A stretch of DNA of 64,000 bases from Roseomonas sp. (GCA_036499545.1 DASYDR010000095.1:396-64395); one strand, 5' to 3'. Positions 6,679-28,205 are shown, numbered from the stretch's first letter. Notes: a model not told the origin generated them from the letters alone. Numbers and translations are program-made.

Positions 6679-6684
6679 GCGTCG

Positions 6685-8313
6685 ATGCAGCTTGAATTCC
6701 TGCGGCTGCTGCGGCCCCTGTTGCCGCTCGGCCTCGCCGCCACCGCGATGGGCATCGCCAGCGGCCTCGCCACCGCGGCGCTGCTCGCCCTGACCAACCG
6801 CGCCCTGCAATCGCCGGAGGGCGCGGCGAACGGGGTGCTGCTGGGCTTCGCCGGCCTCTGCGCCCTGGTCCTGCTGGGCGAGATCGCTTCCGATATCGGC
6901 ACCAGCCTGGTCGGGCAGCGGGCGCTGGCGCGGCTGCGCGAAGGTCTCTGCGATCGCATCCTCGATGCGCCGATCGCGCGGATCGAAGCGCAGAAGGCGC
7001 ATCGCCTGCTCGCCATGCTGGCCGAGGATATCGACACCATCAGCAACGCCACCTTCAGCTTCTCGAGCGTCGCCATCGCGACCGCGGTGGCGCTCGGCTG
7101 CCTGGGCTACCTGCTGGTGCTGTCGCCGCCGCTGTTCCTGGTCGTCGCGCTCGGTATCGGGCTCGGCGCCGCCGGCCACGCGCTGGCGCGCCGGCGGGGC
7201 CTGGCAGGCTTCGCGGAAGCGCGGGAAGCGGGCGACACGCTGCAGCGGCACTACCGTGCGATGCTGGACGGCGCCAAGGAGCTGAAGCTGAATCGCGCCC
7301 GGCGTGAAGCATTGCGCACGGACGGGCTGCGCGTGACCATCGGGCGCATCCGTGATCTCCGCATGCGCGCCATCCGGGTCTTCGTCAGCGCCAATGCCTT
7401 CGGCTCCCTGCTCTATTTCGCGATGATCGGGCTGATCCTCTGGCTCTCCCCGGCCTGGGCCGGGACGGATCGCGGGGTGCTGAGCGGCTTCGTGCTGGTG
7501 CTGCTGTATCTGAAGGGGCCGGTCGAACAGATCGTCCATGCCCTGCCGCTGTTCGGCCGGGCGCAGATCGCGCTGCGCAAGGTCGCCGGCCTCTCCGCCG
7601 GCTTCCAGGACCGGGGCGCGATGGTACCGGATGCGCCGCCGGCCGGCTTCGCGGGATCGATCGCGCTCCGTGGCGCGACGCATGCCTTTCCGGCCGCGCC
7701 GGGCCAGGCGCCCTTCGTGCTCGGGCCGATCGACCTGCAGATCGCGCGGGGCGAGACGGTCTTCATCGTGGGCGAGAATGGCTGCGGCAAGACCACGCTG
7801 ATCAAGCTGCTACTAGGGCTCTATCCGCCCGGCGACGGCGCGCTGCTGCTGGATGGCGCGGTGGTGCCGCCCGAGGGCATGGATGACTACCGCCAGCTTT
7901 TCTCCGCGGTCTTCTCCGACTACTTCCTGTTCGATGACCTGCCGACCGCGCAGGCCGACATGGCGCGGCGCGCGGCGCATTACCTGGACCGGTTCGAGAT
8001 CGCGCACCGCGTCCGGATCGAGGCCGGCGCCTTCACCTCGCTCGACCTCTCGACCGGGCAGCGCAAGCGCCTGGCCCTGATCCAGGCCTGGCTGGAGGAG
8101 CGGCCGATCATGATGTTCGACGAATGGGCGGCCGACCAGGACCCGACCTTCCGCCGCATCTTCTATACGGAACTCTTGCCGGAGCTGAAGCGGATGGGCC
8201 GCACGCTGATCGTGGTCTCCCATGACGACCGCTATTTCGACGCCGCCGACCGGATCATCCGGCTGCAGGCAGGGCGCATCGCGGAGGACCGGCGCATGGC
8301 GCCGGCGGCGTGA
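6685..8313 (+). CDS. Cyclic-peptide export ABC transporter (SyrD/PvdE/YojI family)
   Basis: N-terminal TMD fused to an NBD with GENGCGKTT, LSTGQRKRLAL and MMFDEWAADQDPTFRRIFY..LL..LK..G.T.IVVSHDDRYF, which is the family hallmark. Confidence 0.9.
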   Translation: MQLEFLRLLRPLLPLGLAATAMGIASGLATAALLALTNRALQSPEGAANGVLLGFAGLCALVLLGEIASDIGTSLVGQRALARLREGLCDRILDAPIARIEAQKAHRLLAMLAEDIDTISNATFSFSSVAIATAVALGCLGYLLVLSPPLFLVVALGIGLGAAGHALARRRGLAGFAEAREAGDTLQRHYRAMLDGAKELKLNRARREALRTDGLRVTIGRIRDLRMRAIRVFVSANAFGSLLYFAMIGLILWLSPAWAGTDRGVLSGFVLVLLYLKGPVEQIVHALPLFGRAQIALRKVAGLSAGFQDRGAMVPDAPPAGFAGSIALRGATHAFPAAPGQAPFVLGPIDLQIARGETVFIVGENGCGKTTLIKLLLGLYPPGDGALLLDGAVVPPEGMDDYRQLFSAVFSDYFLFDDLPTAQADMARRAAHYLDRFEIAHRVRIEAGAFTSLDLSTGQRKRLALIQAWLEERPIMMFDEWAADQDPTFRRIFYTELLPELKRMGRTLIVVSHDDRYFDAADRIIRLQAGRIAEDRRMAPAA

Positions 8314-9095
8314 CCATGACCGCACCGCTCTATGCGCTGGAGGATGCCGGCTTCACGGTATCCGGCCGCACCATCCTGCATCCGCTGCGCTGCGACCTGC
8401 CGGCCGGGCGGGTGATCGGCCTGATCGGGCATAATGGCTCCGGCAAGTCGACATTGGTGAAGCTGCTGGCCCGGCAACAGGCGGCGAGCGCCGGGGCCAT
8501 CCACTTCGAAGGCATGGCGCTCAGGGCCTGGCCGGGGCGCGGCTTCGCCCGCCGCGTCGCCTATCTGCCGCAGCAGACCGCGCCCGCCACCGGCCTGCTG
8601 GTGCGGGAACTGGTGGCGCTCGGACGCTACCCCTGGCATGGCACGCTCGGCCGCTTCGGGGCCGCCGACCGCGCCAAGGTGGCCGAGGCCCTGCGGCTGA
8701 CCGGGACCGAGGTCTTCGCCGACCGGCTGGTCGACACGCTCTCCGGCGGCGAACGCCAACGCGCCTGGCTTGCCATGCTGGTCGCCCAGGATGCCGCCTG
8801 CCTGCTGCTCGACGAACCGATCGCCGCACTCGACGTCGCGCATCAGGTGGAGATGCTGGCCCTGGTCCAGCGGCTCAGCCGGGAGCGCGGGGTGAGTGTC
8901 ATCGTCGTGCTGCACGACGTGAACATGGCGGCGCGCTTCTGCGACGAGATCCTGGCCCTGCATGGCGGCCGGCTGATCGCGCGCGGCACGCCGGAGGCGA
9001 TCATGACCCCTTCGGTGCTGGCGTCGATCTATGGCGTGCCGATGGCGACGCTGCCGCATCCCGACGGCGTCGGCGTCATCGGATTCGTGCGGTAG
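8310..9095 (+). CDS. fhuC: Fe-siderophore ABC transporter ATP-binding protein
   Basis: GHNGSGKST, LSGGERQRAWLAMLVAQD, LLLDEP..ALDVAHQVE, VLHDVNMAARFCD. GTGA overlap with the exporter stop codon. Confidence 0.92.
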   Translation: MTMTAPLYALEDAGFTVSGRTILHPLRCDLPAGRVIGLIGHNGSGKSTLVKLLARQQAASAGAIHFEGMALRAWPGRGFARRVAYLPQQTAPATGLLVRELVALGRYPWHGTLGRFGAADRAKVAEALRLTGTEVFADRLVDTLSGGERQRAWLAMLVAQDAACLLLDEPIAALDVAHQVEMLALVQRLSRERGVSVIVVLHDVNMAARFCDEILALHGGRLIARGTPEAIMTPSVLASIYGVPMATLPHPDGVGVIGFVR

Positions 9096-9128
9096 CGGAC
9101 GCGCTCTCGTGCCGCCCCGCGTGGTGTT

Positions 9129-10703
9129 TCAGCCCTTCTCGACGTTCCAGAAGATCGGGAAGGAGGATTGCACCAGGTCGCGCAGCGACGAGCGATAGGC
9201 GGCCGGGATGGTGAACTGGCCCCACATGACATTGGGCACCAGCTCATAGGCGATACGCTGCACCTCGGCCGCGATCCGCTTGCGCTCCTCCTGGGTCTCG
9301 GCATCGGCGAAGGCGCGCGCCAGGGCCGGGATGCGATCGTCGCAGGACCAGCCCGGGTAATCCGCGCAGGTGCTGGCGATGTAGAAATGGGTCAGCGGTG
9401 TCAGCATGTCGACGCCGTTGGAATAGACCGAGAAGATGCTCCAGCCCTCGCGCCGCCCGCGCCGCGCCAGGACCGTGCCCCAATCCATCACCTGTTCGTC
9501 CACCGTGAAGCCGGCCTGTTGCATGTTCTGCACCAGCACCTGCGCCGCGGTCTGGGAGATGGAACCGGAGACTTCCAGGAAGACCACCGGCTGGCCGCGA
9601 TAGCTGGTGCGCGCCAGCTCCGCCTTCGCCTGTTCCACCGCCAGCCGGGCGCCCTCGGCGCCGGCATCGGTGCTGTAGGGCGCGCCGCACATCCAGAAGG
9701 ACTGGCATTGCGGGGCACGGAAACGTTCGGGGATGCCGATCGCCTGCAGCACGGTGCTCTGGTCGACCAGCTTCCACAGCACGCGCCGCACCGCCGGATC
9801 GTCGAAGGGCGGGAAGGTGTGGTTCAGGCGGAAATTGCCCTGGAACTGCTGCAGGCCGCCGAGCGAGAGCAGCCGCACGTCGCGCGCGCGTTCCAACCGC
9901 GGGATCCAGTCGAAGGGGACATACTGCTGGTAGTCGATCTCGCCGGCCATCAGCGCGGTCGAGCCGGTCGCCTGGTCCGACATGGCGCGCAGCGACAGGC
10001 TGTCGATCCGCACCCGCTTGCCGCCGGCCAGGAAATCCGGCGCTTCGGGGCGCGGCGCATAGCCCGCGAATTTCTCCAGCACCATGGCATTGCCTGGCCG
10101 CCAGAGATCCGGGCGGAAGCGGAAAGGGCCGGAGCCGATGATTTCCGTGATGCGCTGGTCGGCAGGTGTGCGGGCGATGCGTTCCGGCAGGATGAAGGGC
10201 ACCGGGGCGTTCGGCTTGCCCAGCACGTCCAGCACCAGCGGGAAGGGGCGCTTCAACCGCAGCTCGATCGTCCGCGCATCCCTGGCCACCAGGCTCTCCC
10301 GCGCATCCAGCAGCATGCGGCCCAGGGCATCGCGCGGCATCCAGCGTTCGAGGGAGGCGACGACATCGGCCGCCGTCACCGGCTGGTCGTCGTGGAATTT
10401 CAGCCCCGGGCGCAAGGTAACGCGCCAGGTCAGGCGATCGGCGGAGACGCTGTGGTCCTCGGCCATCTGCGGCTGGATGCGGCCTTGCCCATCCATGGCG
10501 AAGAGCGTGTCGAAGACATGATAGCCGAAGGTGCGGGTGATCGCCGCGGTCGTCACATAGGGATCGAGGATGACGACCTCGGATTCCAGCATCAGGGTCA
10601 GCTGCCGCTCGGCCCGCGCTTCCGGCGGCCGGATGATGCCGGAAGCCGCCAATGCGCCGCCGCCGGCCAGCAGGCCACGACGCCCGAATTCCGTGATGGG
10701 CAT
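9129..10703 (-). CDS. ABC transporter substrate-binding protein, family 5 (peptide/nickel)
   Basis: Start set at ATG 10703 (MPITEFGRRGLLAGG, Tat-like). LDPYVT..VFDTLF..PQMAE..TLRPGLKFHDDQPVTAADVVAS..IGSGPFRF. Confidence 0.88.
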   Translation of the reverse strand: MPITEFGRRGLLAGGGALAASGIIRPPEARAERQLTLMLESEVVILDPYVTTAAITRTFGYHVFDTLFAMDGQGRIQPQMAEDHSVSADRLTWRVTLRPGLKFHDDQPVTAADVVASLERWMPRDALGRMLLDARESLVARDARTIELRLKRPFPLVLDVLGKPNAPVPFILPERIARTPADQRITEIIGSGPFRFRPDLWRPGNAMVLEKFAGYAPRPEAPDFLAGGKRVRIDSLSLRAMSDQATGSTALMAGEIDYQQYVPFDWIPRLERARDVRLLSLGGLQQFQGNFRLNHTFPPFDDPAVRRVLWKLVDQSTVLQAIGIPERFRAPQCQSFWMCGAPYSTDAGAEGARLAVEQAKAELARTSYRGQPVVFLEVSGSISQTAAQVLVQNMQQAGFTVDEQVMDWGTVLARRGRREGWSIFSVYSNGVDMLTPLTHFYIASTCADYPGWSCDDRIPALARAFADAETQEERKRIAAEVQRIAYELVPNVMWGQFTIPAAYRSSLRDLVQSSFPIFWNVEKG

Positions 10704-10747
10704 GGGAAGTTCCCTCCGTTTTCGTGGTCGGTCGGGCTTCGCAGTTC

Positions 10748-10755
10748 GATATATC
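10748..10755. promoter_or_regulatory. Candidate GntR operator 1 (GATATATC core)
   Basis: ttcGATATATCct in the ~100-bp divergent gap between the SBP and the amidase. The same core occurs at 14192 and 18608. Confidence 0.65.
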
Positions 10756-10806
10756 CTATGGCAGGCTGCGCTACCGATCGCCCCCGCGCAAGGAGGAAAC
10801 GCGCCG

Positions 10807-12240
10807 ATGTCCGATGCCGAGCTTCTCTTCATGCCGGCGACACGCGCGGCCGCACTGATCCGCCGGCGCGCGCTCTCCCCGGTCGAGCTGACGCGCGCCG
10901 TGCTGGATGCGATCGCGCGCGAGCAGCCGCGCCTGAACGCCTTCGTGACCGTGCTGGAAGACCAGGCGATGGAAGCGGCGCGGGAGGCGGAGCAGGCGGT
11001 GATGCTCGGCGCGCCGCTCGGCCCTCTGCACGGCGTGCCGGTGCATATCAAGGACCAGGTCGATACCGCCGGCATCCGCACCACCCATGGCTCGGCGATC
11101 TTCGCGGAGAACGTGCCGGCACGGGACGACATCACCGCGACCCGGCTGCATCAGGCGGGCAGCATCCTGCTCGGCAAGACGACGATGCCGGAGTTCGGGC
11201 ACAAGGGGCTGACCGATGGGCCGGGCTTCGGCACCACCCGCAACCCCTGGGACCTGACGCGCACCGCCGGCGGCTCCTCGGGCGGTGCCGCGGCGGCGGT
11301 GGCGGCGGGGCTCGGGCCGCTCGGGCTCGGCACCGACGGCGCCGGTTCGGTGCGCATCCCGGCCGCCTGCTGCGGCATCGTCGGGCTGAAGGCGACGCTC
11401 GGCGCCGTGCCCTGGGAAGCGGCGGCCGACACCTTCGCCAACAATGTCTATGCGGGGCCGATGACGCGCACGGTGACCGATGCCGCGGTGATGTTCGCGG
11501 CGATCACGGGACCGAGCCCGCGCGACGCGCAGAGCCTGCGCGGCCCGGGCCTGGCGCCGGTGTCACCAGGGCTGATCGGCGGCGATCTGCACGGGCTTCG
11601 CATCGGCTACATCGCGCGGGCCTGCAATGCGCGGGTGCAGCGGGAGATGGCGGCGAACACCATCGCCTCCCTCGACGCGCTGATGGCGCGCGGCGCCGCG
11701 GTGGAGGAAGTGAAGGACGCGATCGACTGGATGGAATTCCCCGGCCGCATCATGTACCAGGCCGGTTTCGCGGTGACCTGCGCGCAGTATCTGCCGGAAT
11801 GGCACAACCGCATGGATCCGGTGCTGCTCGCCTTCATGGAGCGCGGGTCGGCCTTCTCCCTCGCGGAGTTCCGCGAAGCGCAATTCGCCCGCACCCGGCT
11901 GTTCCGCACCATCCAGGGCCTGTTCGAACGCTACGACGTGCTGGTGACGCCGACCCTGACGCGCACCGCGCTGCCGGCCGATTTCGACGCCGCGCATGAC
12001 GAGGTCGAGATCGAGGGCGAGCGCTTCGGCATCACCCGCCAGGGCTGGAGCAGCTACATGTACCCCTTCAACCTGACGGGGCATCCGGCGCTGACCATTC
12101 CGTCCGGCTTCGCCGAGGATGGCCTGCCGACCGCGGTGCAACTCGTCGGCCCCTGGGGCGCCGACATGGACCTGCTGCGCCTCGGCGCCCTGCTGGAGCA
12201 GGACCGCCCCTGGGCGCAGCGGCGGCCGAAGCTGGCGTAG
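10807..12240 (+). CDS. Amidase-signature family hydrolase
   Basis: GVPVHIKD (catalytic Lys), GGSSGGAAAAV and GTDGAGSVRIPA (Ser-cisSer-Lys triad region). AAGGAGG RBS upstream of ATG 10807. Confidence 0.92.
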   Translation: MSDAELLFMPATRAAALIRRRALSPVELTRAVLDAIAREQPRLNAFVTVLEDQAMEAAREAEQAVMLGAPLGPLHGVPVHIKDQVDTAGIRTTHGSAIFAENVPARDDITATRLHQAGSILLGKTTMPEFGHKGLTDGPGFGTTRNPWDLTRTAGGSSGGAAAAVAAGLGPLGLGTDGAGSVRIPAACCGIVGLKATLGAVPWEAAADTFANNVYAGPMTRTVTDAAVMFAAITGPSPRDAQSLRGPGLAPVSPGLIGGDLHGLRIGYIARACNARVQREMAANTIASLDALMARGAAVEEVKDAIDWMEFPGRIMYQAGFAVTCAQYLPEWHNRMDPVLLAFMERGSAFSLAEFREAQFARTRLFRTIQGLFERYDVLVTPTLTRTALPADFDAAHDEVEIEGERFGITRQGWSSYMYPFNLTGHPALTIPSGFAEDGLPTAVQLVGPWGADMDLLRLGALLEQDRPWAQRRPKLA

Positions 12241-12316
12241 GGAGGTTCCTTGATCGCCGTCGCAACTGCAGGTTTCGCTGCCGCGTAGCAGGCCGGGCTT
12301 CTGCGCGAGCGCTCCT

Positions 12317-12604
12317 CTACAAATGGCGCTCCCAGTCCTGGCGGCCGTGCAGGACGCGGATGATGAGGATCCCATCACCATGCTCGACGTAGACGACGAT
12401 ATGCGCCCGGCAGGGGTGCAGCCGCACTGGCGGGCTGAATTCCACCCGCTCGCGGGCCAGGTGCGGATGGTCGGCGAGGCGTTCGAAGGCCGCGGCCAGT
12501 TCCGCATGGTAGCGCTCAGCCTGCTCGATGCCGAAGGCTGCCGCACCATGCAGGTAGATGTCGATGATGTCCTGATCCGCTTGGCGGCTTGTCCTATAGC
12601 CCAT
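12317..12604 (-). CDS. parE: ParE/RelE-family toxin
   Basis: MGYRTSRQADQDIIDIY..FGIEQAERY..L..HP..H.VVY.....I.IIRVLHGRQDWERHL, 95 aa, overlapping the antitoxin stop. Confidence 0.88.
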   Translation of the reverse strand: MGYRTSRQADQDIIDIYLHGAAAFGIEQAERYHAELAAAFERLADHPHLARERVEFSPPVRLHPCRAHIVVYVEHGDGILIIRVLHGRQDWERHL

Positions 12605-12851
12605 GATCCCGCGCGCTCTTGGCTTGTCTGCGCGCGGCTTCCAGGACGTCGCCAATGGAGCGGTCGCTGATTCCACTGTCGATGCCTTCGGTAATCAGTC
12701 GCTGCAACTCGGCCAGCTTATCAGCCCGCTCCTGGTCGCGCCGGATCAGGTCGCGGACATAATCGCTCGCGTTGCTGTAGCGCCCGGTCTGGGCCTGCTT
12801 TTCCACCCAGTCCTTCATCGGATCGGGAAGGGACACGTTCATGGTCGCCAT
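12594..12851 (-). CDS. parD: ParD-family antitoxin (RHH, CC2985-like)
   Basis: MATMNVSLPDPMKDWVEKQAQTGRYSNASDYVRDLIRRDQER..LQRLITEGIDSG, 85 aa. Confidence 0.9.
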   Translation of the reverse strand: MATMNVSLPDPMKDWVEKQAQTGRYSNASDYVRDLIRRDQERADKLAELQRLITEGIDSGISDRSIGDVLEAARRQAKSARDHGL

Positions 12852-12869
12852 GGTGGCACCTCTGGCGCC

Positions 12870-12899
12870 ATGATGGCAAAGATTGCCAATTTCTGTCAA
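12870..12899 (-). promoter_or_regulatory. parDE promoter with operator palindrome
   Basis: On the minus strand TTGACA-18 nt-CATCAT. The inverted repeat TGGCAA-aga-TTGCCA (12874-12888) lies between the -35 and -10 elements. Confidence 0.65.
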
Positions 12900-12927
12900 C
12901 GACCGAGGGCTGCGACGCCCCCTGTGC

Positions 12928-14166
12928 TCAGCCCAGTTTCGCCACCGCCGCGAAGCCGGCATCAGCCGCCTCGAGCGCCCGGTCGATATCGGCTTCGGCA
13001 TGAGCGCAGGACAGGAACATGTTGTGGCGCGGGTGGAAATAGGCGCCCGCCGCCAGTGCCGCGGCGCAGAAGGCATTGCCGAGGCGGAAGTCCTCATCGC
13101 CCTCGAACAGCATCAGCGGCATCTGCGCGGGGCCGGTCTGGCGTACCGCGACGCCATGCCGCGCGGCGCCAGCGGCGAAGCCGGCGCGCAGCCTTTCGCC
13201 CATCGCCCGCATCCGGGCCGGGCCGTCGATGCGGTGCAACGTGTCCAATGTCGCGATTGCGGCCGCCATCGGCACCGCGCCGCACCAGAAGGATCCGGTG
13301 GTGAAGACCGTGGTCGCCGCCTGCCGCAGCCAGTCCGCCCCGGTGACCGCGGCCAGCGGATGCCCGTTGGCGATCGCCTTGCTGTAGGCGGCGAGGTCGG
13401 GGCGCACGCCGAGCGTCTCCCATGACCCGCCGAGATGCAGGCGGAAGCCGGCGCGGACATCATCCAGGATCAGCGCGGCGCCGTCGCGGTCGCAGGCCGC
13501 GCGCAGCGCCTGCGCGAAAGCGGGGTCCGGCAGTTCCAGCGCGCGGGCCATGTCGTGGCGGAAGGCGGTGACGATGATCGCCGCCAGATCACCCTTCGCA
13601 GCCGCGACCGCCGCTTCGATCGAAGCGATGTCATTGTAGTCATAGAAGACCAGATGCGCCCGGTCCTCGATGGTGACGCCGGCGATGGAGGGCGAGCACC
13701 AGGGCACCGCGCCATGATAGGAACCGCGCGCGACCAGCACCTTGCGGCGGCCGGTCGCCGCGCGGGCGATGGTGACGCAGGCGGTGGTGGCATCGGTGCC
13801 GTTCTTGGCCAGCAGGCACCAATCGGCGTGCGGGATGGTATCGACCAGGCGTTCGGCGAGGTCCACCAGGGCCGGCGCCGGCCCGTTCATGCAATCGCCC
13901 AGCGCCGCCTGGCGCCGCGCCGCGTCCTCCACCGCCGGATGGTGGTGGCCGAGCACGACCGGCCCCCAGGAACACATGAAATCGACCACTTCCCGCCCAT
14001 CGACATCCCAGAGGCGGCAGCCTTCGGCGTGGGCGAAATACTGCGGATAGCCGGGCGGCAGGTTGGCGGCATTGAGATGCCCCCAGAGCCCGCCCGGGAT
14101 CACCCGCCGCGCACGGTGCCGCAGCGCGGCATCGCGGCTGGCGGTGAGGGGAATGGCGTCGGGCAT
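12928..14166 (-). CDS. Class III PLP aminotransferase (glutamate-1-semialdehyde aminomutase-like)
   Basis: AEGCRLWDVDGREVVDF, GTDATT, RGSYHG, LILDDVRAGFR and YSKAIANG (PLP Lys). Start at ATG 14166. Confidence 0.88.
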   Translation of the reverse strand: MPDAIPLTASRDAALRHRARRVIPGGLWGHLNAANLPPGYPQYFAHAEGCRLWDVDGREVVDFMCSWGPVVLGHHHPAVEDAARRQAALGDCMNGPAPALVDLAERLVDTIPHADWCLLAKNGTDATTACVTIARAATGRRKVLVARGSYHGAVPWCSPSIAGVTIEDRAHLVFYDYNDIASIEAAVAAAKGDLAAIIVTAFRHDMARALELPDPAFAQALRAACDRDGAALILDDVRAGFRLHLGGSWETLGVRPDLAAYSKAIANGHPLAAVTGADWLRQAATTVFTTGSFWCGAVPMAAAIATLDTLHRIDGPARMRAMGERLRAGFAAGAARHGVAVRQTGPAQMPLMLFEGDEDFRLGNAFCAAALAAGAYFHPRHNMFLSCAHAEADIDRALEAADAGFAAVAKLG

Positions 14167-14191
14167 GGGGCTAGGCTCCTTCACGCCCTTC

Positions 14192-14199
14192 GATATATC
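14192..14199. promoter_or_regulatory. Candidate GntR operator 2 (GATATATC core)
   Basis: ttcGATATATCat in the ~90-bp divergent gap between the aminotransferase and the SBP. Confidence 0.65.
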
Positions 14200-14255
14200 A
14201 TGTGGCCGAATGATTTGGGAATGCGGCGGCACGACCGCATCCTGGGGGAGGCGAG

Positions 14256-15758
14256 ATGCGCGCTTTGCTGGCCGGACTGTTCGGCCTGATCCTGATGGCC
14301 ATGCCTGGCGCGGCGCAGACCCTGCGCATCGGCATCGCCTCCGATCCCGATGTGCTGGACCCGACCCTGTCGCGCAGCGTCGCGGCGCGGCAGGTTTTCA
14401 TGGCCATGTGCGACAAGCTGATCGAGGTGAACGAGCGGGGCGAACTGGTGCCGCAACTCGCGACCGGCTGGAACTGGGAGGAGGAGGGCCGCGCGCTGCT
14501 GCTGACGCTGCGGCCGGGCGTGCATTTCCAGGATGGCGCGGCGCTGGATGCGGAAGCCGCGGTCGCGGGCCTGAACCGGCACTTCACCGCCCCGGGCTCC
14601 ACGCGTCGCGGCGAAATGGGACCGGTGACGGGCATTGAGGTCGCGGGGCCCATGCAGGTCCGGATCCGCCTGAGCCAGCCCTTCGCGCCGCTGCTGGCGG
14701 CGCTGTCCGATCGCGCGGGCATGCTGGTATCACCGCGCCAGGCCACTGTGTTCGGTGCCGATTTCCAGCGCGAGCCCGCCTGCGCCGGCCCCTTCCGCCT
14801 GACCCGCCGCGTCGCCCAGGACCGCATCGAGCTGGAGCGGTTCGACGGCTACTGGGACCGCGCCGCGATCCATGCCGAGCGCGTCGTCTACCGGCCGATC
14901 AGCGACACCACGGTGCGCGCCGCCAATCTGCGTGCCGGATCGCTCGACATCATCGAACGGGTCAATACGTCGGATGTCGAGACGCTGCGCCAGGATCGCC
15001 GCGTCCGCCTGCTGGAAGGGCCGTCACTGTCGACCGTCTATATTGCGATCAATGTCGCGAACGGGGAGCGGGCGCAGACCCCGCTCGGCCGCGATCCCCG
15101 CGTGCGCGCGGCGCTGGAGGCGGCGATCGACCGGGAGGTGCTGAACCGCGTCGCCTTCGACGGGCTCTACCGACCGGCCAACCAGTCGGTGCCGCCCGGC
15201 CATCCGCACCATGTCGATGGCATCGCGGTGCCGGGCCGCGACGTCGCGCGCGCCCGCGCCCTGCTGCGGGAAGCGGGGCTGGAGCGGGTGCGGATCAAGT
15301 TCTCCGTGCCGAACACCACCGAATACGTGCAGGCCGCCGAAGTGATCCAGGCCATGGCGGCGGAAGCCGGCATCGACCTCGAGCTGCAGGTGATCGAGGT
15401 CGCGACCTTGCTGCGGCAATGGACCGCCGGCGATTTCGAGGCGCTGATCATCGCCTGGTCAGGGCGCACCGATATCGACGGCAATCTCTGGGGCTTCAAC
15501 GCCTGCGGTGAATCCCTCAACGGCGGCCGCTATTGCAGCGAAGCCGCGGATGCCGCGCTGCGCGACGGCCGCACCAGCGTCGACCCCGCGGCGCGGCTCG
15601 CCGCCTATGGCCGCGCCATGCGGGTGCTGCTGGAGGACCGGCCCTATATCTATCTCTGGCACCCGCGGAGCTTCTTCGGCACCACCGCCGCCGTGGACGG
15701 GCTGCGGCTGGTGCCGGATGGGCTGATCCGGGTGCAGGGCGTCAGCCTGCGCCGCTGA
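14256..15758 (+). CDS. ABC transporter substrate-binding protein, family 5 (DppA-like)
   Basis: Signal peptide, DPDVLDP, PQLATGW, LRPGVHFQDG, CAGPFRL, RDPRVRAALEAAIDR. Confidence 0.9.
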   Translation: MRALLAGLFGLILMAMPGAAQTLRIGIASDPDVLDPTLSRSVAARQVFMAMCDKLIEVNERGELVPQLATGWNWEEEGRALLLTLRPGVHFQDGAALDAEAAVAGLNRHFTAPGSTRRGEMGPVTGIEVAGPMQVRIRLSQPFAPLLAALSDRAGMLVSPRQATVFGADFQREPACAGPFRLTRRVAQDRIELERFDGYWDRAAIHAERVVYRPISDTTVRAANLRAGSLDIIERVNTSDVETLRQDRRVRLLEGPSLSTVYIAINVANGERAQTPLGRDPRVRAALEAAIDREVLNRVAFDGLYRPANQSVPPGHPHHVDGIAVPGRDVARARALLREAGLERVRIKFSVPNTTEYVQAAEVIQAMAAEAGIDLELQVIEVATLLRQWTAGDFEALIIAWSGRTDIDGNLWGFNACGESLNGGRYCSEAADAALRDGRTSVDPAARLAAYGRAMRVLLEDRPYIYLWHPRSFFGTTAAVDGLRLVPDGLIRVQGVSLRR

Positions 15759-15791
15759 TACTATCTGCCCCTCGGACGCCGGGCGGGCGCC

Positions 15792-15816
15792 CGGCACGGG
15801 CGAAGTGCCCGTGCCG
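15792..15816. terminator. Hairpin between convergent genes
   Basis: cggcacgggc-gaagt-gcccgtgccg, a perfect 10-bp stem. Confidence 0.55.
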
Positions 15817-15827
15817 CTATCCCTGCG

Positions 15828-16799
15828 TCACTGGTTCCAGGGCCGGCGCTGCCACAGCGCCTGCACCTGCTGGGCGTTGCTGGCGGCCATGGCGCGATAG
15901 GCATCGCCGACCACGGCGCGCAGCGGCAGGCCGACACGCTCCGCCTCGCGCAGGAAATCCGCATCCGCCATCGCCGCCGTGAAGGCCTGCTGCAGCGCAT
16001 CGCGGATCGGCGCTGGCATATTGGGTGGGCCGACGATGCCGCGCGCCGAGCCGCCGACGAGATCAAAGCCCTGCTCGCGGAAGGTCGGCACGTCCGGCGT
16101 CGCCTGCCAGCGCTGCTCCGCCGCCTGGCCGAGCGAGCGCAGCTGGCCTTCGCGCAGGTTGGAATAGATCTCGGCCATATTGGCGACGCCGAGCGGCAGG
16201 TGCCCGCCCAGGAGCTGCGTCATCAGCGGCGCGGCGCCAGCAAAGGGGATATGCGTCATTTCCGGAATGCCGGCCAGCGCCTGGAAGTTCAGCATCAGGA
16301 TGTGGTCGTCGGAGCCGATGCCGGTGGTGCCATAGCTGAGCTCGCCCGGCTTTGCCTTTGCGGCGGCGACGAGGTCGGCCAGCGTCCTGATCGGCGAATT
16401 GGTCGCGACATAGATCGTGTTCGGGTCATCGACCACATTGGCGATGAAGCTGAAATCCAGCGGCCGGTAGCGCACCGGCCGCTCCAGCGGGAAGGTGTTC
16501 AGCGCCGGCAGCGTGATGGCGCAGAGCGTATAGCCGTCGGCCGGCGCGTTGAAGCCGAACTCGAAGCCGACCTGGCCGCCGGCACCGCCGCGATTGCTCA
16601 CCACCGCGCGCGCGTTGCGGCCGAGATGCCTGGTGACATAGGGCATCACCAGCCGTGCCATGGTGTCGACGCCGCCGCCCGGCGGATAGGGCACGATGAC
16701 TTCGATGGCACGGTCCCCGGGCCAGCCCGATTGCGCGCGGGCAAGGGACGGCGCGGCGAGCAACGCGGCGCCCGTCAGGAGATGACGGCGGGAGAGCAT
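15828..16799 (-). CDS. Tripartite tricarboxylate transporter substrate-binding protein (Bug/TctC)
   Basis: MLSRRHLLTG leader, IVPYPPGGGVD, NRGGAGG, ADGYTL, YGTTGIGSDDH, HIPFAGAAP. Confidence 0.9.
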   Translation of the reverse strand: MLSRRHLLTGAALLAAPSLARAQSGWPGDRAIEVIVPYPPGGGVDTMARLVMPYVTRHLGRNARAVVSNRGGAGGQVGFEFGFNAPADGYTLCAITLPALNTFPLERPVRYRPLDFSFIANVVDDPNTIYVATNSPIRTLADLVAAAKAKPGELSYGTTGIGSDDHILMLNFQALAGIPEMTHIPFAGAAPLMTQLLGGHLPLGVANMAEIYSNLREGQLRSLGQAAEQRWQATPDVPTFREQGFDLVGGSARGIVGPPNMPAPIRDALQQAFTAAMADADFLREAERVGLPLRAVVGDAYRAMAASNAQQVQALWQRRPWNQ

Positions 16800-16889
16800 G
16801 GATCTGTTTCCTCGACTTCTGCAGCGGGCGGGAGATTGCGTCGGCATCCCGCCGGGGTCAAAGAGAGCCCGGAAGAGGGAGGATGCGGC

Positions 16890-17813
16890 ATGACAGGGCA
16901 ACACGCGGTGGTTGTGGGCTTCGGCCTGATGGGGTGCGACATCGCGGCGATCTTCCTCGCCGGCGGCTGGCGCGTCAGCGCGGTGGAAACCGATCGCACC
17001 GCCTGGCCGTCCCGGGAGGAGCGCGTGCGCAGCTCCCTGGCGCAGCTCGACGCCGATCCCGCGCTCGGCGCCGCGCTCACCTTGCATGGCGCGCTGGAGG
17101 ATGTCGGCTTCGCCGATGCGGCGGTGGTGATCGAAGCGGTGCCGGAGCAGCTGGAGCTGAAGCGCCAGGTCTTCGCCGCGCTCGACCGGCTGGTGCCGGC
17201 GGGCGTGCCGATCGCGACCAATGCCTCAGGCCTGCGCATCACCGATATCGCGCGGGAGCTGCCGGGCCGCGCGCGCATGGCCAACCTGCATTTCTTCCTG
17301 CCGGCGCATCTGGTGCCGGGGGTCGAGGTGGTGCGCGGCGAATACACCGACCCCGCGGTCTGCGACCGGCTGGCGGCGATCATGGCCTCGCTCGGCCGCA
17401 AGCCGATCCGCGTCGGGCGCGACGTGCCGGGCTTCCTGGCCAACCGCATCCAGCATGCGCTGATGCGCGAAGCCTTCGCCGCGATCGATGAAGGCCTGGC
17501 CACGGCGGAGGATGTGGACGCCGCGGTGCGCTATGCCTTCGGCTTCCGCTACGTCGCCGCCGGCCCGATGCTGCAGAAGGAGCTGGCGGGGCTCGAGACC
17601 CAGCTTGCCGCCGCCCGCAGCATCTACCCGTCGCTGCACAACGGCACCGAACCCTCCGCCACGCTGCAGAAGCTGGTGGCCGAAGGCCGGCTTGGCGCCA
17701 AGAGCGGCCGCGGTTTCCGTGACTGGCCGGAGGACAAGGTGGCGCGGGAGAAGGCGCGCTACGAAAGCACGCTCAAGGCCGCGACCAGGCTGCTCCGCGA
17801 CGAGGAGAGCTGA
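16890..17813 (+). CDS. 3-hydroxyacyl-CoA dehydrogenase family protein
   Basis: VVVGFGLMG Rossmann motif, IEAVPEQLELKRQVF, ATNASGL, HFFLP, PGFLANRIQHAL. GGAGG RBS before ATG 16890. Confidence 0.9.
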   Translation: MTGQHAVVVGFGLMGCDIAAIFLAGGWRVSAVETDRTAWPSREERVRSSLAQLDADPALGAALTLHGALEDVGFADAAVVIEAVPEQLELKRQVFAALDRLVPAGVPIATNASGLRITDIARELPGRARMANLHFFLPAHLVPGVEVVRGEYTDPAVCDRLAAIMASLGRKPIRVGRDVPGFLANRIQHALMREAFAAIDEGLATAEDVDAAVRYAFGFRYVAAGPMLQKELAGLETQLAAARSIYPSLHNGTEPSATLQKLVAEGRLGAKSGRGFRDWPEDKVAREKARYESTLKAATRLLRDEES

Positions 17814-18599
17814 TCAGCCCTTGCGGGCAGGCGTCTCCGCGGCGCTTTCCTCCATCCGGCGCAGCAGCGCGACCAGACCGGCGCCGCCTTCGATGGTGTC
17901 GGCGATCACCGCGTCGCGCGTCGCGCCCGCATCCCGCGCCCGCAGCCCGTCCAGGATGTCGAGATGGCGGTGCCGGCCGGGATAGGTCGGCCGCGCATGC
18001 GGGTACAGGTGGTTCAGCATCGGCCCGTTGCGCAGCCAGATGCCCTCGATCACGCCCAGCAGTTCCGGCATCGCGGCGGCACGGTAGAGCCCGTGGTGAA
18101 AGCGCCAATTGGCCCCGATCGCGGCCGGCGCATCGCCCGCCGCCTCGGCCCGCACCAGCTCCGCATGCGCGCGTTCCAGCGCGCGGATGCCGGCTTCGGT
18201 AACGTGCGCGGCCGCCGCGGCGGCGGCCATGCTCTCGAGCGCCAGGCGCACCTCGCGCAGTTCCAGGTATTGCGCCAGGGTCAGCCCGGCGACGGTGATG
18301 GCGCGCGCCTGTTCCATGCGCAGCGCGCGTTCGCGAACCAGCTGCATCACGGCTTCCCGCACCGGCGTCTCGGAAACCGACAGGCTTTGCGCCAGGTCGC
18401 GGATCTTCAGGCGCTGGCCCGGCCGCATGCGGCCTTCCATCAGCGCGTTGCGCAGCTCGGCATAGACGCGGCCGGTGAAGTTCTCGCGCCCGATCGGCGT
18501 CAGGAAGCCAAGCCCGTCGCCGGCCGCGGCCCGCGATGGGCGGACGGGGCTGCGGGCGGTGGGGCGGGACCGGGCGGGCGGCTGATCCATGGACACCAT
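17814..18599 (-). CDS. GntR-family (FCD) transcriptional regulator
   Basis: VYAELRNALMEGRMRPGQRL..LAQSLSVSETPVREA HTH plus FCD domain (ELREVRLALE, NWRFHHGL). Start at 18599 or 18590. Confidence 0.9.
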   Translation of the reverse strand: MVSMDQPPARSRPTARSPVRPSRAAAGDGLGFLTPIGRENFTGRVYAELRNALMEGRMRPGQRLKIRDLAQSLSVSETPVREAVMQLVRERALRMEQARAITVAGLTLAQYLELREVRLALESMAAAAAAAHVTEAGIRALERAHAELVRAEAAGDAPAAIGANWRFHHGLYRAAAMPELLGVIEGIWLRNGPMLNHLYPHARPTYPGRHRHLDILDGLRARDAGATRDAVIADTIEGGAGLVALLRRMEESAAETPARKG

Positions 18600-18607
18600 G
18601 ACTATTT

Positions 18608-18615
18608 GATATATC
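18608..18615. promoter_or_regulatory. Candidate GntR operator 3 (GATATATC core)
   Basis: ttGATATATCga immediately upstream of gntR, in the gntR/acylase divergent gap. Confidence 0.7.
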
Positions 18616-18673
18616 GACGAACCGGCGAAGCCGGACCAGAGTTGACGCGCCGCTTCATATGGGAAGGCCCCGC

Positions 18674-20980
18674 ATGCCGCCAGCATTCAACGCCCGGACC
18701 CTGCAGGCCGCCCTGCCGCCGCTCACCGGGGAGCTCCGGCTGCCGGGCCTGGCGGCGCCGGTCACGGTGCTGCGCGACGCCTGGGGCATTCCGCATATCC
18801 GGGCGCGGGGCGAGGCCGACGCCTTCCGCGCCCAGGGCTTCGTGCATGCCCAGGACCGGCTGTTTCAGATGGAGCTGAACCGCCGCCGCGCGCTCGGCCG
18901 CGCCGCCGAATGGCTCGGCGCCGCGGCGGCCGAAGGCGATATCCTGGCCCGGCGCCTGGGCGTGGAGGTCGCCAGCCGGCGCGATTGCGCCGCCCTCGGC
19001 GAGGAGGCGCGGGCGATGGTGGAGGCCTATGCGGCCGGCGTGAACGCCTTCATCGCCTCCGGCGCGCCGCACCCCGCCGAATACGCCCTGCTCGGCACGA
19101 CGCCGGAACCCTGGGAAGGCTGGCACTGCGTCGCGGTGATGCGCCGCCTCGGCCTGTTGATGGGCTCGGTCTGGTTCAAGCTGTGGCGTGCCGCGGCGTT
19201 GCCGCTGGTCGGCGCGGAGAACGCGGCCAAGCTGCGCTACGATGATGGCGGGCGCGACTTGTTGCTGGTGCCGCCGGGCGTCGAGGCCACGCGCTGGACG
19301 GCGATGCTGGCCGATCTGGCACCCGGGATGGAAGCACTGCTCGGCACGGCGGCAGGGGATGCGACGGGCGGCGGCAGCAACAACTGGGCGGTGGCGCCGG
19401 CGCTGAGCGGCACCGGCCGGCCATTGCTCGCGGGCGATCCGCACCGCGTCTTCGAGATCCCGAACATGTATGCGCAGGGCCATCTCGCCTGCGATGCCTT
19501 CGATGCGATCGGGCTGACGGTACCGGGCGTGCCGGGCTTTCCGCATTTCGCCCATAACGGCCGCGTCGCCTGGTGCGTCACCCATGCCTTCGTCGATATC
19601 CATGACCTGTTCGTCGAACGCCTGGATGCCACCGGCGCGCGCTGCGCCTTCCGCGGCGATTGGCGCCCGGTGCGGCGGCGGGAGGAAGCGGTGCTGGTGC
19701 GCGGCGAAGCGGCGCCGCGCACGGTCACGGTGCTGGAGACCGATCACGGTCCGATCATCGCCCAATCCGGCGACATCGCGCTGGCGTTGCGCTCGGTGCA
19801 ATTCGCCGAGACCGATCTCTCCTTCGATTGCCTGCCGCGCATGCTGCGCGCGGAGAGCGTCCCGGCCCTGTTCGAAGCGACGCGCGGTTGGGGCCTGATC
19901 GACCATAACCTGGTCGCCGGCGATACCGGCGGCCGCATCGGGCATCTGGTGCGCGCCCGCATCCCGCGCCGCCCGCGCGCCAATGGCTGGCTGCCGGTGC
20001 CGGGCTGGACCGGCGCGCATGACTGGCAGGGCTGGATCGAACACGAGGCCATGCCGCAGGTCATCGATCCGCCCGGCGGCCTGATCGTCACCGCGAACAA
20101 CCGCGTCGCCGCCGATGACGGGCCGGACTACCTCTGCACCGATTGCCATCCTTCCTACCGCGCGCGCCGCATCCTGGACCGGTTGCGGACCGAGGCCGCG
20201 GCACGGACCGTGGAGGGGGCAGCATCCCTGCATGCCGATACGCTCTCCGCCAATGCCCTGCTGTTCCGCGAACGCATCGCCGCGCTGGCGGAGCCCGGCG
20301 ATGCCGCGGCCGCGGCGTTGCGGGCCCGGCTGCTCGCCTGGGATGGGCGCATGCAGGCCGGAGACAGTGCCCCCACCGCCTATATCGCGCTGCGGCGCGC
20401 GTTGACCGCGCTGTTGGCCGAGCGCAGCGGCCTGGCGGGCCTGGCGTCGCATCCCTTCCTGACCGTGGCGCCCGGCGTGGTGCCGCAGGGCCAGCTCTGG
20501 TGGGCGCTGCCGAACCTGCTGCGCGCGGACGACGCCAGCCTGCTCGGCGGCCTCGGCTGGGCGGACGCCTTCGGGGAAGCGCTGGCGCGGGCGGCACGGC
20601 AGGACACGGACCAGCCGTGGGGCGAAGCGCACCGGCCGCGCCTGGCGCATCCGCTCTCGCCGGGCTTTCCGGATGCGGCGGCGCTGCTCGATCCGGCCGG
20701 ACTGCCGATCGGCGGCGACACCGACACGGTGCTGGCCAATGGGCTGCTGCCGGCCTCCGGCCCCGCCGCCACCTATGGCGCGCTGGCGCGCTATGTCTTC
20801 GATGTCGGCAATTGGGAGAATTGCCGCTGGGCCGTGTTCCACGGTGCCTCCGGCCATCCCGGTAGCCCGCATTTCGCCGACCAGCATGCGGAATGGGCGG
20901 CGACCAGGATGGTACCGATGACCTATGGCTGGGAGGCGATCGCCGGCGCGGCGCGGACGGCGCAGCAACTGTTGCCCTGA
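18674..20980 (+). CDS. Penicillin acylase family Ntn-hydrolase, cephalosporin acylase AcyII-like
   Basis: RDAWGIPHI, QGFVHAQDRLFQM, autocleavage site GGG|SNNWAV (Ser codon 19376), GDPHR, TANNR. No signal peptide. Confidence 0.93.
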   Translation: MPPAFNARTLQAALPPLTGELRLPGLAAPVTVLRDAWGIPHIRARGEADAFRAQGFVHAQDRLFQMELNRRRALGRAAEWLGAAAAEGDILARRLGVEVASRRDCAALGEEARAMVEAYAAGVNAFIASGAPHPAEYALLGTTPEPWEGWHCVAVMRRLGLLMGSVWFKLWRAAALPLVGAENAAKLRYDDGGRDLLLVPPGVEATRWTAMLADLAPGMEALLGTAAGDATGGGSNNWAVAPALSGTGRPLLAGDPHRVFEIPNMYAQGHLACDAFDAIGLTVPGVPGFPHFAHNGRVAWCVTHAFVDIHDLFVERLDATGARCAFRGDWRPVRRREEAVLVRGEAAPRTVTVLETDHGPIIAQSGDIALALRSVQFAETDLSFDCLPRMLRAESVPALFEATRGWGLIDHNLVAGDTGGRIGHLVRARIPRRPRANGWLPVPGWTGAHDWQGWIEHEAMPQVIDPPGGLIVTANNRVAADDGPDYLCTDCHPSYRARRILDRLRTEAAARTVEGAASLHADTLSANALLFRERIAALAEPGDAAAAALRARLLAWDGRMQAGDSAPTAYIALRRALTALLAERSGLAGLASHPFLTVAPGVVPQGQLWWALPNLLRADDASLLGGLGWADAFGEALARAARQDTDQPWGEAHRPRLAHPLSPGFPDAAALLDPAGLPIGGDTDTVLANGLLPASGPAATYGALARYVFDVGNWENCRWAVFHGASGHPGSPHFADQHAEWAATRMVPMTYGWEAIAGAARTAQQLLP

Positions 20981-20981
20981 G

Positions 20982-21323
20982 CTATCGCCGCTGCAGGCGG
21001 CAATGGGCTGGCGCCACGCCGGGTGCTGCGACGGATGCCTCGTCCCTGGATGCGGTGATCGCCAGCAGGCCGGCATCCAGGCGGGCGGTGTAGCGCATGC
21101 CGGGCCCGACCCCTTCCGGCACGCCGGCCAGGGTGACCGGCACGCCTTGCCAATCCAGCATCGCGGTCGGCGCATCGCCGGCCACGAAGACAATCGGCAG
21201 CGGCTCCCGCATCCCGCCGCAGGTCAGGATGGCCGAGACACGGGGCGGCTCCGTCTGCGCCCGGGCGGCGCTCGCCGGCGCCAGGGCCAGGCAGGCGAGG
21301 ATCGGGGTGGCGGCGTGGCGCAT
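20982..21323 (-). CDS. Small secreted hypothetical protein (possible MliC/PliC-like fold)
   Basis: Signal peptide ending A-R-A, two Cys flanking a ~80-aa mature domain. Start at ATG 21323 (alternative 21353). Confidence 0.6.
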   Translation of the reverse strand: MRHAATPILACLALAPASAARAQTEPPRVSAILTCGGMREPLPIVFVAGDAPTAMLDWQGVPVTLAGVPEGVGPGMRYTARLDAGLLAITASRDEASVAAPGVAPAHCRLQRR

Positions 21324-21337: not shown

Positions 21338-21916
21338 TCAGCGCCCCTGCCAATCCGCCGGCATCGGGCTGTGCCGGCCTTCGGCGAACTCCTCGATCAT
21401 CTTGGCGCAGAAAGCCGGCAGGTCGCCGGGGCTGCGGCTGGTGACCAGGCCATTATCCACCACCACCTCCCGGTCCAGCACCTCCGCGCCGGCATTGCGC
21501 AGGTCGGTGTGGATGCTGTGGTAGCCGGTCATGCGGCGGCCTTCGGCGACGCCGGCATCGATCAGGATCCAGGGCGCATGGCAGATGGCCGCGACCGGCT
21601 TGCCGGCTTCGAAGAAGCCGCGCACGAAGCGCAGCGCTTCCCGGTCGGTGCGGAGCGCATCCGGGTTATGCGCGCCGCCGGGCAGCACCAGCCCGTCGTA
21701 ATGCGTCGCATCCGCGGTCTTCACCGAGCGGTCCACTGGCACGGTCTCGCCTTTCTCGAAATGCCGGAAGCCGGTGATCTCGCCGGGCTTCGGCGACACG
21801 ATCTCCACCCGCGCGCCAGCCCGTTTCAGCGCCTGCAGCGGCTGGGTCAGCTCCACCTGCTCGAAACCGTCCGTCGCCAGGATCGCGATGGTCTTGCCCT
21901 GCAGCGTTTCAGCCAT
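21338..21916 (-). CDS. pfpI: PfpI/DJ-1 family protein (type 1 glutamine amidotransferase-like)
   Basis: AILATDGFEQVEL, YDGLVLPGG..NPD.LR, AAICHAPW, VVVDNGLVTSRSPGDLPAF. Confidence 0.93.
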   Translation of the reverse strand: MAETLQGKTIAILATDGFEQVELTQPLQALKRAGARVEIVSPKPGEITGFRHFEKGETVPVDRSVKTADATHYDGLVLPGGAHNPDALRTDREALRFVRGFFEAGKPVAAICHAPWILIDAGVAEGRRMTGYHSIHTDLRNAGAEVLDREVVVDNGLVTSRSPGDLPAFCAKMIEEFAEGRHSPMPADWQGR

Positions 21917-22057
21917 GCCTCTGTTCCCTTCCGTCCGTCCGGAGCGTGATCGGTTGCGGTGAGATCACCGGAAACCGTGGATCACGCGGTCGACCACAGT
22001 CCTGGCGCATGATCCGTGCGCGCAGGCGAACGCATCGTGCTCCAGCCAGGCGGGGGG

Positions 22058-22082
22058 AACGCCGCGGGGCGGCCAGGGTTCA
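22058..22082 (-). promoter_or_regulatory. Candidate EcfG/sigmaT general-stress promoter for pfpI
   Basis: Minus strand TGAAC-N16-CGTT against the consensus GGAAC-N16/17-CGTT, about 140 bp upstream of pfpI. Confidence 0.45.
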
Positions 22083-22257
22083 CGCACCGCCGCGTGAGGG
22101 GGTCTCACGTCGGTGGCGTGGTCCGCACTCGGCGTCGCGACCTGCCGTCCGATCGCAATTTGACATCGAGACGACCGAAGCCTTCGGTCATGATGTCCGC
22201 CGGATCTGCGCACTGCCGGGCTTCGGCTGGTCGGGATCGTGTTCGGGGAACAGGCGA

Positions 22258-28165: not shown

Positions 28166-28175
28166 CCTGATGCCG

Positions 28176-28205
28176 GCATCGGCGGAAAGGCTCTTCCGCC
28201 GATGC
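28176..28205. terminator. Hairpin between convergent genes
   Basis: gcatcggcggaa-aggctc-ttccgccgatgc, a perfect 12-bp stem. Confidence 0.6.

Follow-up and report, generated by a model that had tools for sequence, protein, structure and literature searches.

Regulators of the FadR/VanR type (McbR/YncC, FadR, PdhR, LldR, and Atu1419) combine an N-terminal GntR winged helix with an all-helical FCD domain, and act through a short, AT-rich inverted repeat at adjacent catabolic or transport promoters and at their own promoter. A regulator with the same two domains is encoded in a 64,000-nucleotide stretch of DNA from Roseomonas sp. (GCA_036499545.1 DASYDR010000095.1:396-64395; “the window,” GC content ~70%), where it lies in an island of catabolic and transport genes (9129-20980), and likewise a short AT-rich inverted repeat, GATATATC, is present in the promoter of the regulator gene and in two other divergent promoters of the island; ligand-released repression would be expected here too. 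Sequence comparisons strongly support a system of one GntR-FCD regulator, one predicted operator, three divergent promoters and six co-regulated genes. The predicted regulon would comprise the genes for two family-5 solute-binding proteins (SBP5a and SBP5b), a cytoplasmic N-terminal nucleophile (Ntn) acylase, an amidase, a FumI-like aminotransferase, and gntR itself.

The regulatory principle (a GntR-FCD repressor, a palindromic operator, divergent promoters) is an ordinary one; the regulon, well supported by the sequence data, is previously undescribed, and the regulator is not an ortholog of any characterized FCD member. Its winged helix-turn-helix domain (PF00392; residues 40-100) scores 55.5 bits against a cut-off of 27, and its FCD effector domain (PF07729; residues 110-228) 69.3 bits against a cut-off of 24.3; His142, His165, His207 and His209 are invariant in nine orthologs. 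The nearest solved structure is that of Escherichia coli McbR/YncC (4p9f), but at 94 bits the relationship is distant, and no protein of the island matches an NCBIfam model above its curated cut-off, so that equivalog names could not be assigned. The island also differs from the FadR/VanR-type systems in its operator: the GT-Nx-AC signature of the subfamily is missing from the GATATATC core, and most sites of the regulon are asymmetric. Our literature search found no paper linking GATATATC with a GntR regulator.

Two of the enzymes have well-described relatives. The fum cluster of Sphingopyxis sp. MTA144 encodes FumI (6hbs), a class III pyridoxal phosphate (PLP) enzyme to which the island aminotransferase is ~52% identical over its full length; in both systems hydrolases would free a primary amine that is then transaminated, but the fum cluster has the carboxylesterase FumD and tricarballylate genes, whereas the island has an Ntn acylase, an amidase-signature enzyme, family-5 binding proteins and GntR. 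The type of binding protein suggests that the island substrate is smaller and more polar than that of the fum cluster, on whose composition literature searches returned nothing relevant. The class III cephalosporin acylases (Pseudomonas sp. N176, SE83 AcyII; 4hsr/4hst) are ~68% identical to the island acylase in the beta chain, align with it in full over the alpha chain, and have the same GG/SNNW serine nucleophile and no signal peptide; the known members have been characterized only on semi-synthetic beta-lactams, whereas the island gene is part of a conserved regulon. In the literature searched we found no description of the physiological substrate (N176), genomic partners or regulation of a class III cephalosporin acylase.

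Taurine modules of the Tpa/Xsc/TauR type follow the same logic as the island, with ATP-binding cassette (ABC) import, pyruvate-dependent class III transamination, a thiamine pyrophosphate (TPP)-dependent step and a regulator of the GntR superfamily. They differ in that TauR is of the MocR and not the FCD type, Xsc is of the acetolactate synthase and not the E1/transketolase type, and amide hydrolases are absent; the resemblance is one of analogy only. The GntR regulons for vitamin B6, taurine, rhizopine and phosphonate were dropped as candidates because their enzyme families or regulator subfamily differ.

The palindrome in the window

Exactly three copies of GATATATC are present in the 64 kb, at 10748, 14192 and 18608, which is what the initial annotation had proposed, and the flanks and short divergent gaps (75-105 bp) that it described are found as well: the gaps measure 103 bp between the SBP5a and amidase genes (10704-10806), 89 bp between the aminotransferase and SBP5b genes (14167-14255), and 74-83 bp between gntR and the acylase gene (18591 or 18600 to 18673). 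Its gene identities also held, with Pfam confirming every call. The gntR start is probably at 18590, since Humitalea rosea lacks the upstream ATG; with either start the leader is very short. All three sites have the 10-mer TCGATATATC in common, site 3 on the minus strand. A further divergent gap of 90 bp (16800-16889), between the genes for a TctC (Bug) binding protein and a 3-hydroxyacyl-CoA dehydrogenase family protein (3HCDH), contains no GATATATC-type site, again as first annotated.

Could three AT-rich words have coincided by chance in AT-rich intergenic DNA? In dinucleotide-preserving shuffles of the window the mean was 0.13 copies of GATATATC, and none of 100 shuffles reached three. Intergenic DNA in high-GC genomes is relatively AT-rich, and whole-window shuffles therefore overstate the significance. 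Only 405 window positions have six A/T in eight, however, and no more than 13 of 3616 such words reach three copies. Among the 80 palindromic 8-mers with at least six A/T, GATATATC is the only one to do so in the window, and the conservation of the motif in ~100 genomes, described below, rules coincidence out; we regard its probability as negligible. One-mismatch variants of GATATATC elsewhere in the window number five, against 4.96 expected, and those at 32319, 33016, 41842, 48067 and 58708 were accordingly rejected as sites, the one at 41842 being in coding sequence. A fourth TCGATATA, at 41844, was also rejected as a chance match inside a PhoH-like coding sequence.

Measured from the core, the SBP5a start is 44 nt away at site 1 and the amidase ATG 51 nt; at site 2 the distances are 25 nt to the aminotransferase start and 56 nt to the SBP5b ATG, and at site 3, where the core precedes both genes, 8-17 nt to the gntR start and 58 nt to the acylase ATG. 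The element is an inverted repeat (GATA/TATC) whose invariant core contains no GT/AC. The initial annotation had described an 8-bp palindrome, and as the invariant core it stands; the putative operator extends further, to 12-16 bp, by an A-W-R-T arm that is usually on one side. Among 100 distinct sites the commonest outward flanks are ATAT, AAAT or ATGT, and the arm is found on one side only in 89% and on both sides in 4%. In the window the arms point toward the amidase gene (CTATG), the SBP5b gene (ATGTG) and gntR (AAATAG), and the other flank is TC at all three sites. The ideal form of the operator is seen in Variovorax paradoxus VAI-C, where the site is a perfect 16-bp palindrome, ACATGATATATCATGT.

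Conservation of the motif with its regulator

Orthologous loci were gathered by searches with the acylase and with GntR. They share a gene set of SBP5a, amidase, aminotransferase, GntR and acylase, sometimes with SBP5b, in several gene orders; this set is seen in Neoroseomonas, Falsiroseomonas, Humitalea, Pseudoroseomonas and others, each time with the motif in the equivalent promoter gaps. In N. marina and N. oryzicola, gntR and the aminotransferase gene form one operon, and a single site serves both. The closest cultured relative, Plastoroseomonas hellenica, has the same gene order as the window (94, 91 and 84% identity for GntR, aminotransferase and acylase, respectively). This places the organism of the window among the Acetobacteraceae, in the Roseomonas group; the sequencing runs in which it was detected are all of soil-metagenome DNA, none of RNA, and one of them contains nearly the whole window.

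The initial annotation had suggested phylogenetic footprinting of such islands, and in all three promoter classes the gap alignments showed the motif block to be the sole invariant element unrelated to translation. Across nine orthologous SBP5a/amidase gaps GATATATCC.AT..CAG..TG is the only invariant block besides ribosome-binding sites and start codons; GATATATCAAATA is invariant in ten gntR/acylase gaps, and GATATATCAT.TGG in six aminotransferase/SBP5b gaps. The same element emerged from counting 8-mers, with no prior, upstream of 57 distinct aminotransferase orthologs: the top words were ATATATCA, GATATATC and TATATCAT, each present in 41-44 of the 57.

Using a profile built from nine GntR orthologs, we collected 80 further loci (50-94% identity) from Acetobacteraceae, Mesorhizobium, Stella, Aminobacter, Microvirga, Comamonadaceae (including Variovorax) and Janthinobacterium. 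At least one exact GATATATC is present within ~5 kb in 76 of them, and the other four have one-mismatch copies directly upstream of gntR. These loci contain 103 GATATATC sites in 824 kb, 90 of which fall between -40 and +250 nt of the extrapolated start of gntR or of an aminotransferase, acylase, SBP or amidase gene; in 33 high-GC loci without a GntR ortholog there are three copies in 592 kb, a 25-fold lower frequency. The motif is absent from at least 11 loci in which aminotransferase or acylase orthologs occur without a GntR ortholog (L004, L007, L009-L011, L013-L017, L025, L031), and it accompanies the aminotransferase-GntR pair in Jiella, Aureimonas, two metagenome-assembled genomes (MAGs) of Burkholderiales and one of Acidobacteriota, persisting with the regulator in Rhizobiales, Burkholderiales and Acidobacteriota. 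On these comparisons the motif, the regulator and the genes recur together in ~100 bacterial genomes, and the proposal of a single six-gene GntR regulon, made in the initial annotation, is strongly supported at the level of sequence by the footprints, the co-occurrence and the enrichment.

A wider count of the motif, also suggested there, was made on one complete replicon, the Pseudoroseomonas cervicalis plasmid pL11-B (243,010 bp, 72.9% GC), which was read entirely. GATATATC occurs once, at the predicted place: it lies within GATATAGGATATATCATCTATC, in the 68-bp gap from which the aminotransferase gene and a 3-oxo-tetronate kinase gene diverge, next to the GntR ortholog. The plasmid encodes at least four other GntR/FCD regulators.

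These distributions also bear on whether the motif might instead belong to the promoter, for instance as an atypical -10 (or extended -10) for a housekeeping or an alternative sigma factor, or be bound by another protein, with its link to GntR a by-product of shared synteny. The sequence TATAT is indeed part of the motif, no other stretch of each gap is AT-rich, the position at 8-58 nt from the start codons is where a -10 would be, and the core does not have the canonical GT/AC of FadR-type sites. Yet it tracks the regulator and not the enzymes, whose orthologs have no motif where a GntR ortholog is missing, and it stays with GntR through many rearrangements in three phyla; the site is a palindrome, and in VAI-C a perfect one of 16 bp, one copy in a 243-kb replicon is far too rare for a general promoter element, and GntR is the only regulator whose gene is consistently present. 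A promoter element is consequently a very improbable explanation, and GATATATC is very probably the binding site of the neighboring GntR regulator.

Proposed mode of regulation

We infer GntR binding, repression, ligand and substrate alike from sequence, and consider it highly likely that a GntR-FCD protein and an operator with a GATATATC core provide ligand-released repression of a six-gene regulon for import, amide hydrolysis and transamination. GntR (17814-18590/18599) would bind the AT-rich operator, presumably as a dimer. Being 8-58 nt from the start codons, and the only AT-rich stretch in DNA of ~70% GC, the operator must overlap or abut the core promoters, and bound GntR would thus most likely repress both genes of each divergent pair, including gntR. 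GntR would then be released from the operator by a small molecule bound to its FCD domain, be it the imported compound or an intermediate of the pathway.

Several observations weigh against this interpretation. The motif count in the window's own organism covers 64 kb. A scan of 9000-21200 for sigma-70 promoters and terminators found nothing in the three gaps, its only match being in a parDE insertion (see below); with no sigma-70-like hexamers assignable, the overlap of the operator with a -10 or +1 position is deduced from distances only. The invariant core is without the GT...AC signature usual for FadR/FCD-type operators, and the prevailing one-sided arm is odd for a symmetric dimer and makes the binding register ambiguous. 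No GATATATC precedes gntR in Mesorhizobium, and autoregulation is therefore not universal. The autoregulation foreseen in the initial annotation thus fits the window, where a site lies in the regulator's own promoter, and the ten orthologous gaps that conserve this site, but not Mesorhizobium. RNA-seq contigs from a strain resembling M. loti show that the locus is transcribed, and the aminotransferase transcript stretch runs 46-60 nt beyond the motif; with the motif inside the transcribed stretch, the site could be in a 5' untranslated region (a roadblock) or in read-through RNA, and not at a -10. These are assembled contigs, which place no transcription start and are compatible with a roadblock.

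The last of these observations would also agree with GntR binding the motif but activating, or dually regulating, one gene of each divergent pair, as would the asymmetry of the A-W-R-T arm, whose orientation differs between promoters (toward amidase, SBP5b and gntR). Some FCD regulators do activate, although most characterized FadR/FCD regulators of catabolic operons are ligand-released repressors. The distances to the start codons are too short for a class I or class II activator site (8-17 nt for gntR, 25 nt for the aminotransferase gene, and 13-16 nt in loci L018 and L153), and we consider activation unlikely next to ligand-released repression.

Two further features were observed in Mesorhizobium. 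In place of GATATATC, the gntR ortholog of M. loti DSM 2626 is preceded by another AT-rich inverted repeat, GGTATCATATACAC (GTAT-N3-ATAC; L153, 4947-4960). This repeat has TATCATAT in common with the extended operator, and the regulator may recognize it as an alternative site of a more canonical type. The stretch that separates the SBP gene from the aminotransferase gene in this locus contains a perfect GC-rich hairpin (GCGGGAGGCGGC..GCCGCCTCCCGC; 7086-7115), and RNA-seq contigs from three runs break exactly at it.

Enzymes, pathway and gene neighborhood

The features of the island are listed in Table 1. The acylase matches the beta chain of the N176 class III cephalosporin acylase (4hsr) with 769 bits; its Penicil_amidase match spans residues 29-757, and residues 8-224 and 235-768 align to the alpha and beta chains, respectively. 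At the autoprocessing site (...TGGG/SNNWAV) the nucleophile Ser235 aligns with residue 1 of the 4hsr beta chain. Members of this family prefer dicarboxylic acyl groups (PMC6712217). Activity on glutaryl-7-aminocephalosporanic acid (glutaryl-7-ACA) or cephalosporin C is plausible from the degree of identity, which is uninformative on the natural substrate.

Table 1. Predicted operator sites and genes of the island, with positions counted from the first nucleotide of the window.
Feature	Position	Strand	Location or evidence
Operator site 1, TTCGATATATCCTATG	10745-10760 (core 10748-10755)	+	SBP5a/amidase gap
Operator site 2, TTCGATATATCATGTG	14189-14204 (core 14192-14199)	+	aminotransferase/SBP5b gap
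Operator site 3, TCGATATATCAAATAG	18602-18617 (core 18608-18615)	-	gntR/acylase gap
SBP5a, family-5 solute-binding protein	9129-10703	-	Pfam SBP_bac_5, 2.4e-52
Amidase-signature enzyme	10807-12240	+	Pfam Amidase PF01425, 5.3e-99, 333 bits
Class III aminotransferase, FumI-like	12928-14166	-	Pfam Aminotran_3 PF00202
SBP5b, second family-5 solute-binding protein	14256-15758	+	Pfam SBP_bac_5, 6.1e-73
TctC (Bug) binding protein	15828-16799	-	Pfam TctC
3HCDH, 3-hydroxyacyl-CoA dehydrogenase family	16890-17813	+	Pfam 3HCDH
GntR regulator with C-terminal FCD	17814-18590 or 18599	-	Pfam GntR 4.6e-15, FCD 5.4e-19
Ntn-hydrolase acylase, class III cephalosporin (glutaryl-7-ACA) type	18674-20980	+	Pfam Penicil_amidase PF01804, 586 bits

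The aminotransferase aligns to FumI with 422 bits over 400 amino acids (residues 10-409 against 5-404), and the lysine that forms the Schiff base with PLP is aligned (...YSKAIANG against ...WGKCFANG in FumI). FumI is an aminopentol:pyruvate aminotransferase, which deaminates the 2-amino-3-hydroxy end of aminopentol (hydrolyzed fumonisin B1), using pyruvate (PMC3136697). No carboxylesterase or tricarballylate genes were found in the window or in orthologous loci, which sets the island apart from fum-type clusters. The amidase, a generic amidase-signature enzyme whose translation contains the GGSSGG motif and the HIKDQ lysine, has as its nearest structures aryl acylamidase (4yj6, 205 bits) and NylA (3a2p). 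Both binding-protein genes are monocistronic; SBP5a has a twin-arginine-type signal (MPITEFGRRGLL...) and SBP5b a Sec signal peptide. SBP5a orthologs (60-81% identity) adjoin the amidase gene in many loci, and SBP5b orthologs (68-93% identity) are found in 11 of the 80 GntR loci.

These enzyme families make it reasonable to propose that an amide-conjugated amine is imported by an ABC system, that one or two amide bonds are then hydrolyzed, and that the primary amine so freed is transaminated, giving a ketone or aldehyde; in other genomes this would then pass to a TPP-dependent, E1/transketolase-like enzyme or to a pair of 3-oxo-tetronate kinase and class II aldolase. Searches of the 64 kb found neither a Dpp-type permease nor an E1-type TPP enzyme; both binding proteins are hence orphans, whose lack of cognate ABC permeases counts against the proposed regulon function, and the pathway is incomplete within the window. 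The order of import, deacylation and deamination put forward in the initial annotation therefore agrees with the enzyme families and with a synteny that is conserved through rearrangement, but the window encodes no Dpp-type permease for it.

The same annotation had suggested that the Bug/3HCDH pair (15828-17813) may handle the released acyl moiety, a role that the comparison does not support. Only in P. hellenica, one of the 80 ortholog loci, is this pair next to the regulator; in 45 of the 80 the same position downstream of gntR is taken by a gene for a fused E1 alpha/beta TPP-dependent enzyme, and others have split, transketolase-like subunits. The Bug/3HCDH pair thus appears to be a lineage-specific insertion outside the pathway.

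Variant loci support the pathway outline, foremost that of V. paradoxus VAI-C. On the chromid of this strain (CP063167.1) the genes for aminotransferase, GntR, two transketolase subunits, amidase and acylase are co-directional and are followed by an SBP and permeases, with a copy of the motif before each block: ACATGATATATCATGT (L175, 7579-7594) precedes the first gene by 38 nt, and another core (15555-15562) is found upstream of the SBP gene. In the P. cervicalis pL11-B variant (28039-37799 of the record), aminotransferase, SBP and GntR genes are divergent from a block encoding the 3-oxo-tetronate kinase (as annotated), a class II aldolase, an amidase, a small hypothetical protein and an N,N-dimethylformamidase-beta-like protein; as in P. 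cervicalis, a four-carbon acid-sugar kinase gene adjoins the aminotransferase gene in the Acidobacteriota MAG.

VAI-C was isolated for growth on N-acyl-homoserine lactones (AHLs), and its genome is reported to have eight penicillin-acylase loci of unassigned role (PMC8142574). The complete operon in this strain, together with the presence of AHL acylases among the Ntn hydrolases of the penicillin amidase family, could mean that the island degrades AHLs or another fatty-acyl amide, with a quorum-quenching acylase and with the Bug/3HCDH pair handling the fatty acid. We consider this quite unlikely: the acylase lacks a signal peptide and is ~68% identical to a glutaryl-7-ACA acylase, an enzyme with a preference for dicarboxylic acyl groups, its constant partners, a FumI-like aminotransferase and a TPP-dependent or 3-oxo-tetronate enzyme, are not needed for homoserine lactone, the Bug/3HCDH pair is confined to a single locus, and import would be by binding proteins of the peptide/opine type.

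Given that the partner enzymes act on alpha-hydroxy-ketones or keto-sugar acids, and given the kinship with FumI, the sequences suggest, with low confidence, that the freed amine is hydroxylated (of the aminopolyol or amino-sugar-acid type) and would yield a ketol. It is a tentative proposal, which we hold to be possible and no better than that, that this GntR regulon is the natural context of class III cephalosporin C/glutaryl-7-ACA acylases and FumI-type aminotransferases, degrading a hydroxylated amine conjugated through an amide (such as a dicarboxylyl-acylated aminopolyol or amino-sugar acid), with cleavage by the TPP-dependent enzyme or the kinase/aldolase pair as its last step. The FCD regulator would respond to the substrate or to an intermediate, and its operator, with the GATATATC core, would be of a type new for GntR.

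One conserved natural pathway would in this way bring together two enzyme families that are known almost exclusively from their applications, the class III cephalosporin acylases in the making of 7-ACA and the FumI-type aminotransferases in fumonisin detoxification. The predicted operator and its regulator offer an experimental handle on the natural role of the acylases, with culturable carriers in P. hellenica LMG 31523, V. paradoxus VAI-C and M. loti, and the motif permits automatic annotation of the regulon in ~100 or more genomes.

In Pseudoroseomonas oryzae (L005, 12389) and P. coralli (L006, 12425) the motif also precedes an operon of an ABC ATPase (TOBE) and permease, and the transporter type in the regulon would thus be interchangeable; besides gntR, this operon has genes for an SBP_bac_1/8 protein, a dimethylformamidase-like protein and the fused E1 enzyme. 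In both species the E1 gene is followed by another copy, GATATGATATATC (L005, 21979; L006, 21985).

To its left the island is bordered by an unrelated iron/siderophore-type uptake cluster (1605-9095), convergent with SBP5a, which encodes a TonB-dependent receptor, a fused FecCD permease, a protein with ABC_membrane and ABC_tran domains, and an ABC ATPase. Directly downstream of the acylase gene is a DJ-1/PfpI-family gene (21338-21916, minus strand), adjacent in P. hellenica too (78% identity), and beyond it are genes for an L-serine dehydratase (21946-23634, plus strand), a LuxR-type regulator and another TctC protein, none of them with the motif. Within the island, the 690-bp gap between the convergent amidase and aminotransferase genes contains a parD/parE type II toxin-antitoxin pair (12317-12851, minus strand; ParD_antitoxin 12597-12851, ParE_toxin 12317-12604), which is on the same strand as the aminotransferase gene and downstream of it. 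Since the amidase and aminotransferase genes abut directly in P. hellenica and N. marina, the pair is taken to be a recent insertion; it has a promoter-like site of its own, TTGACA-N18-CATCAT, at 12899-12870.

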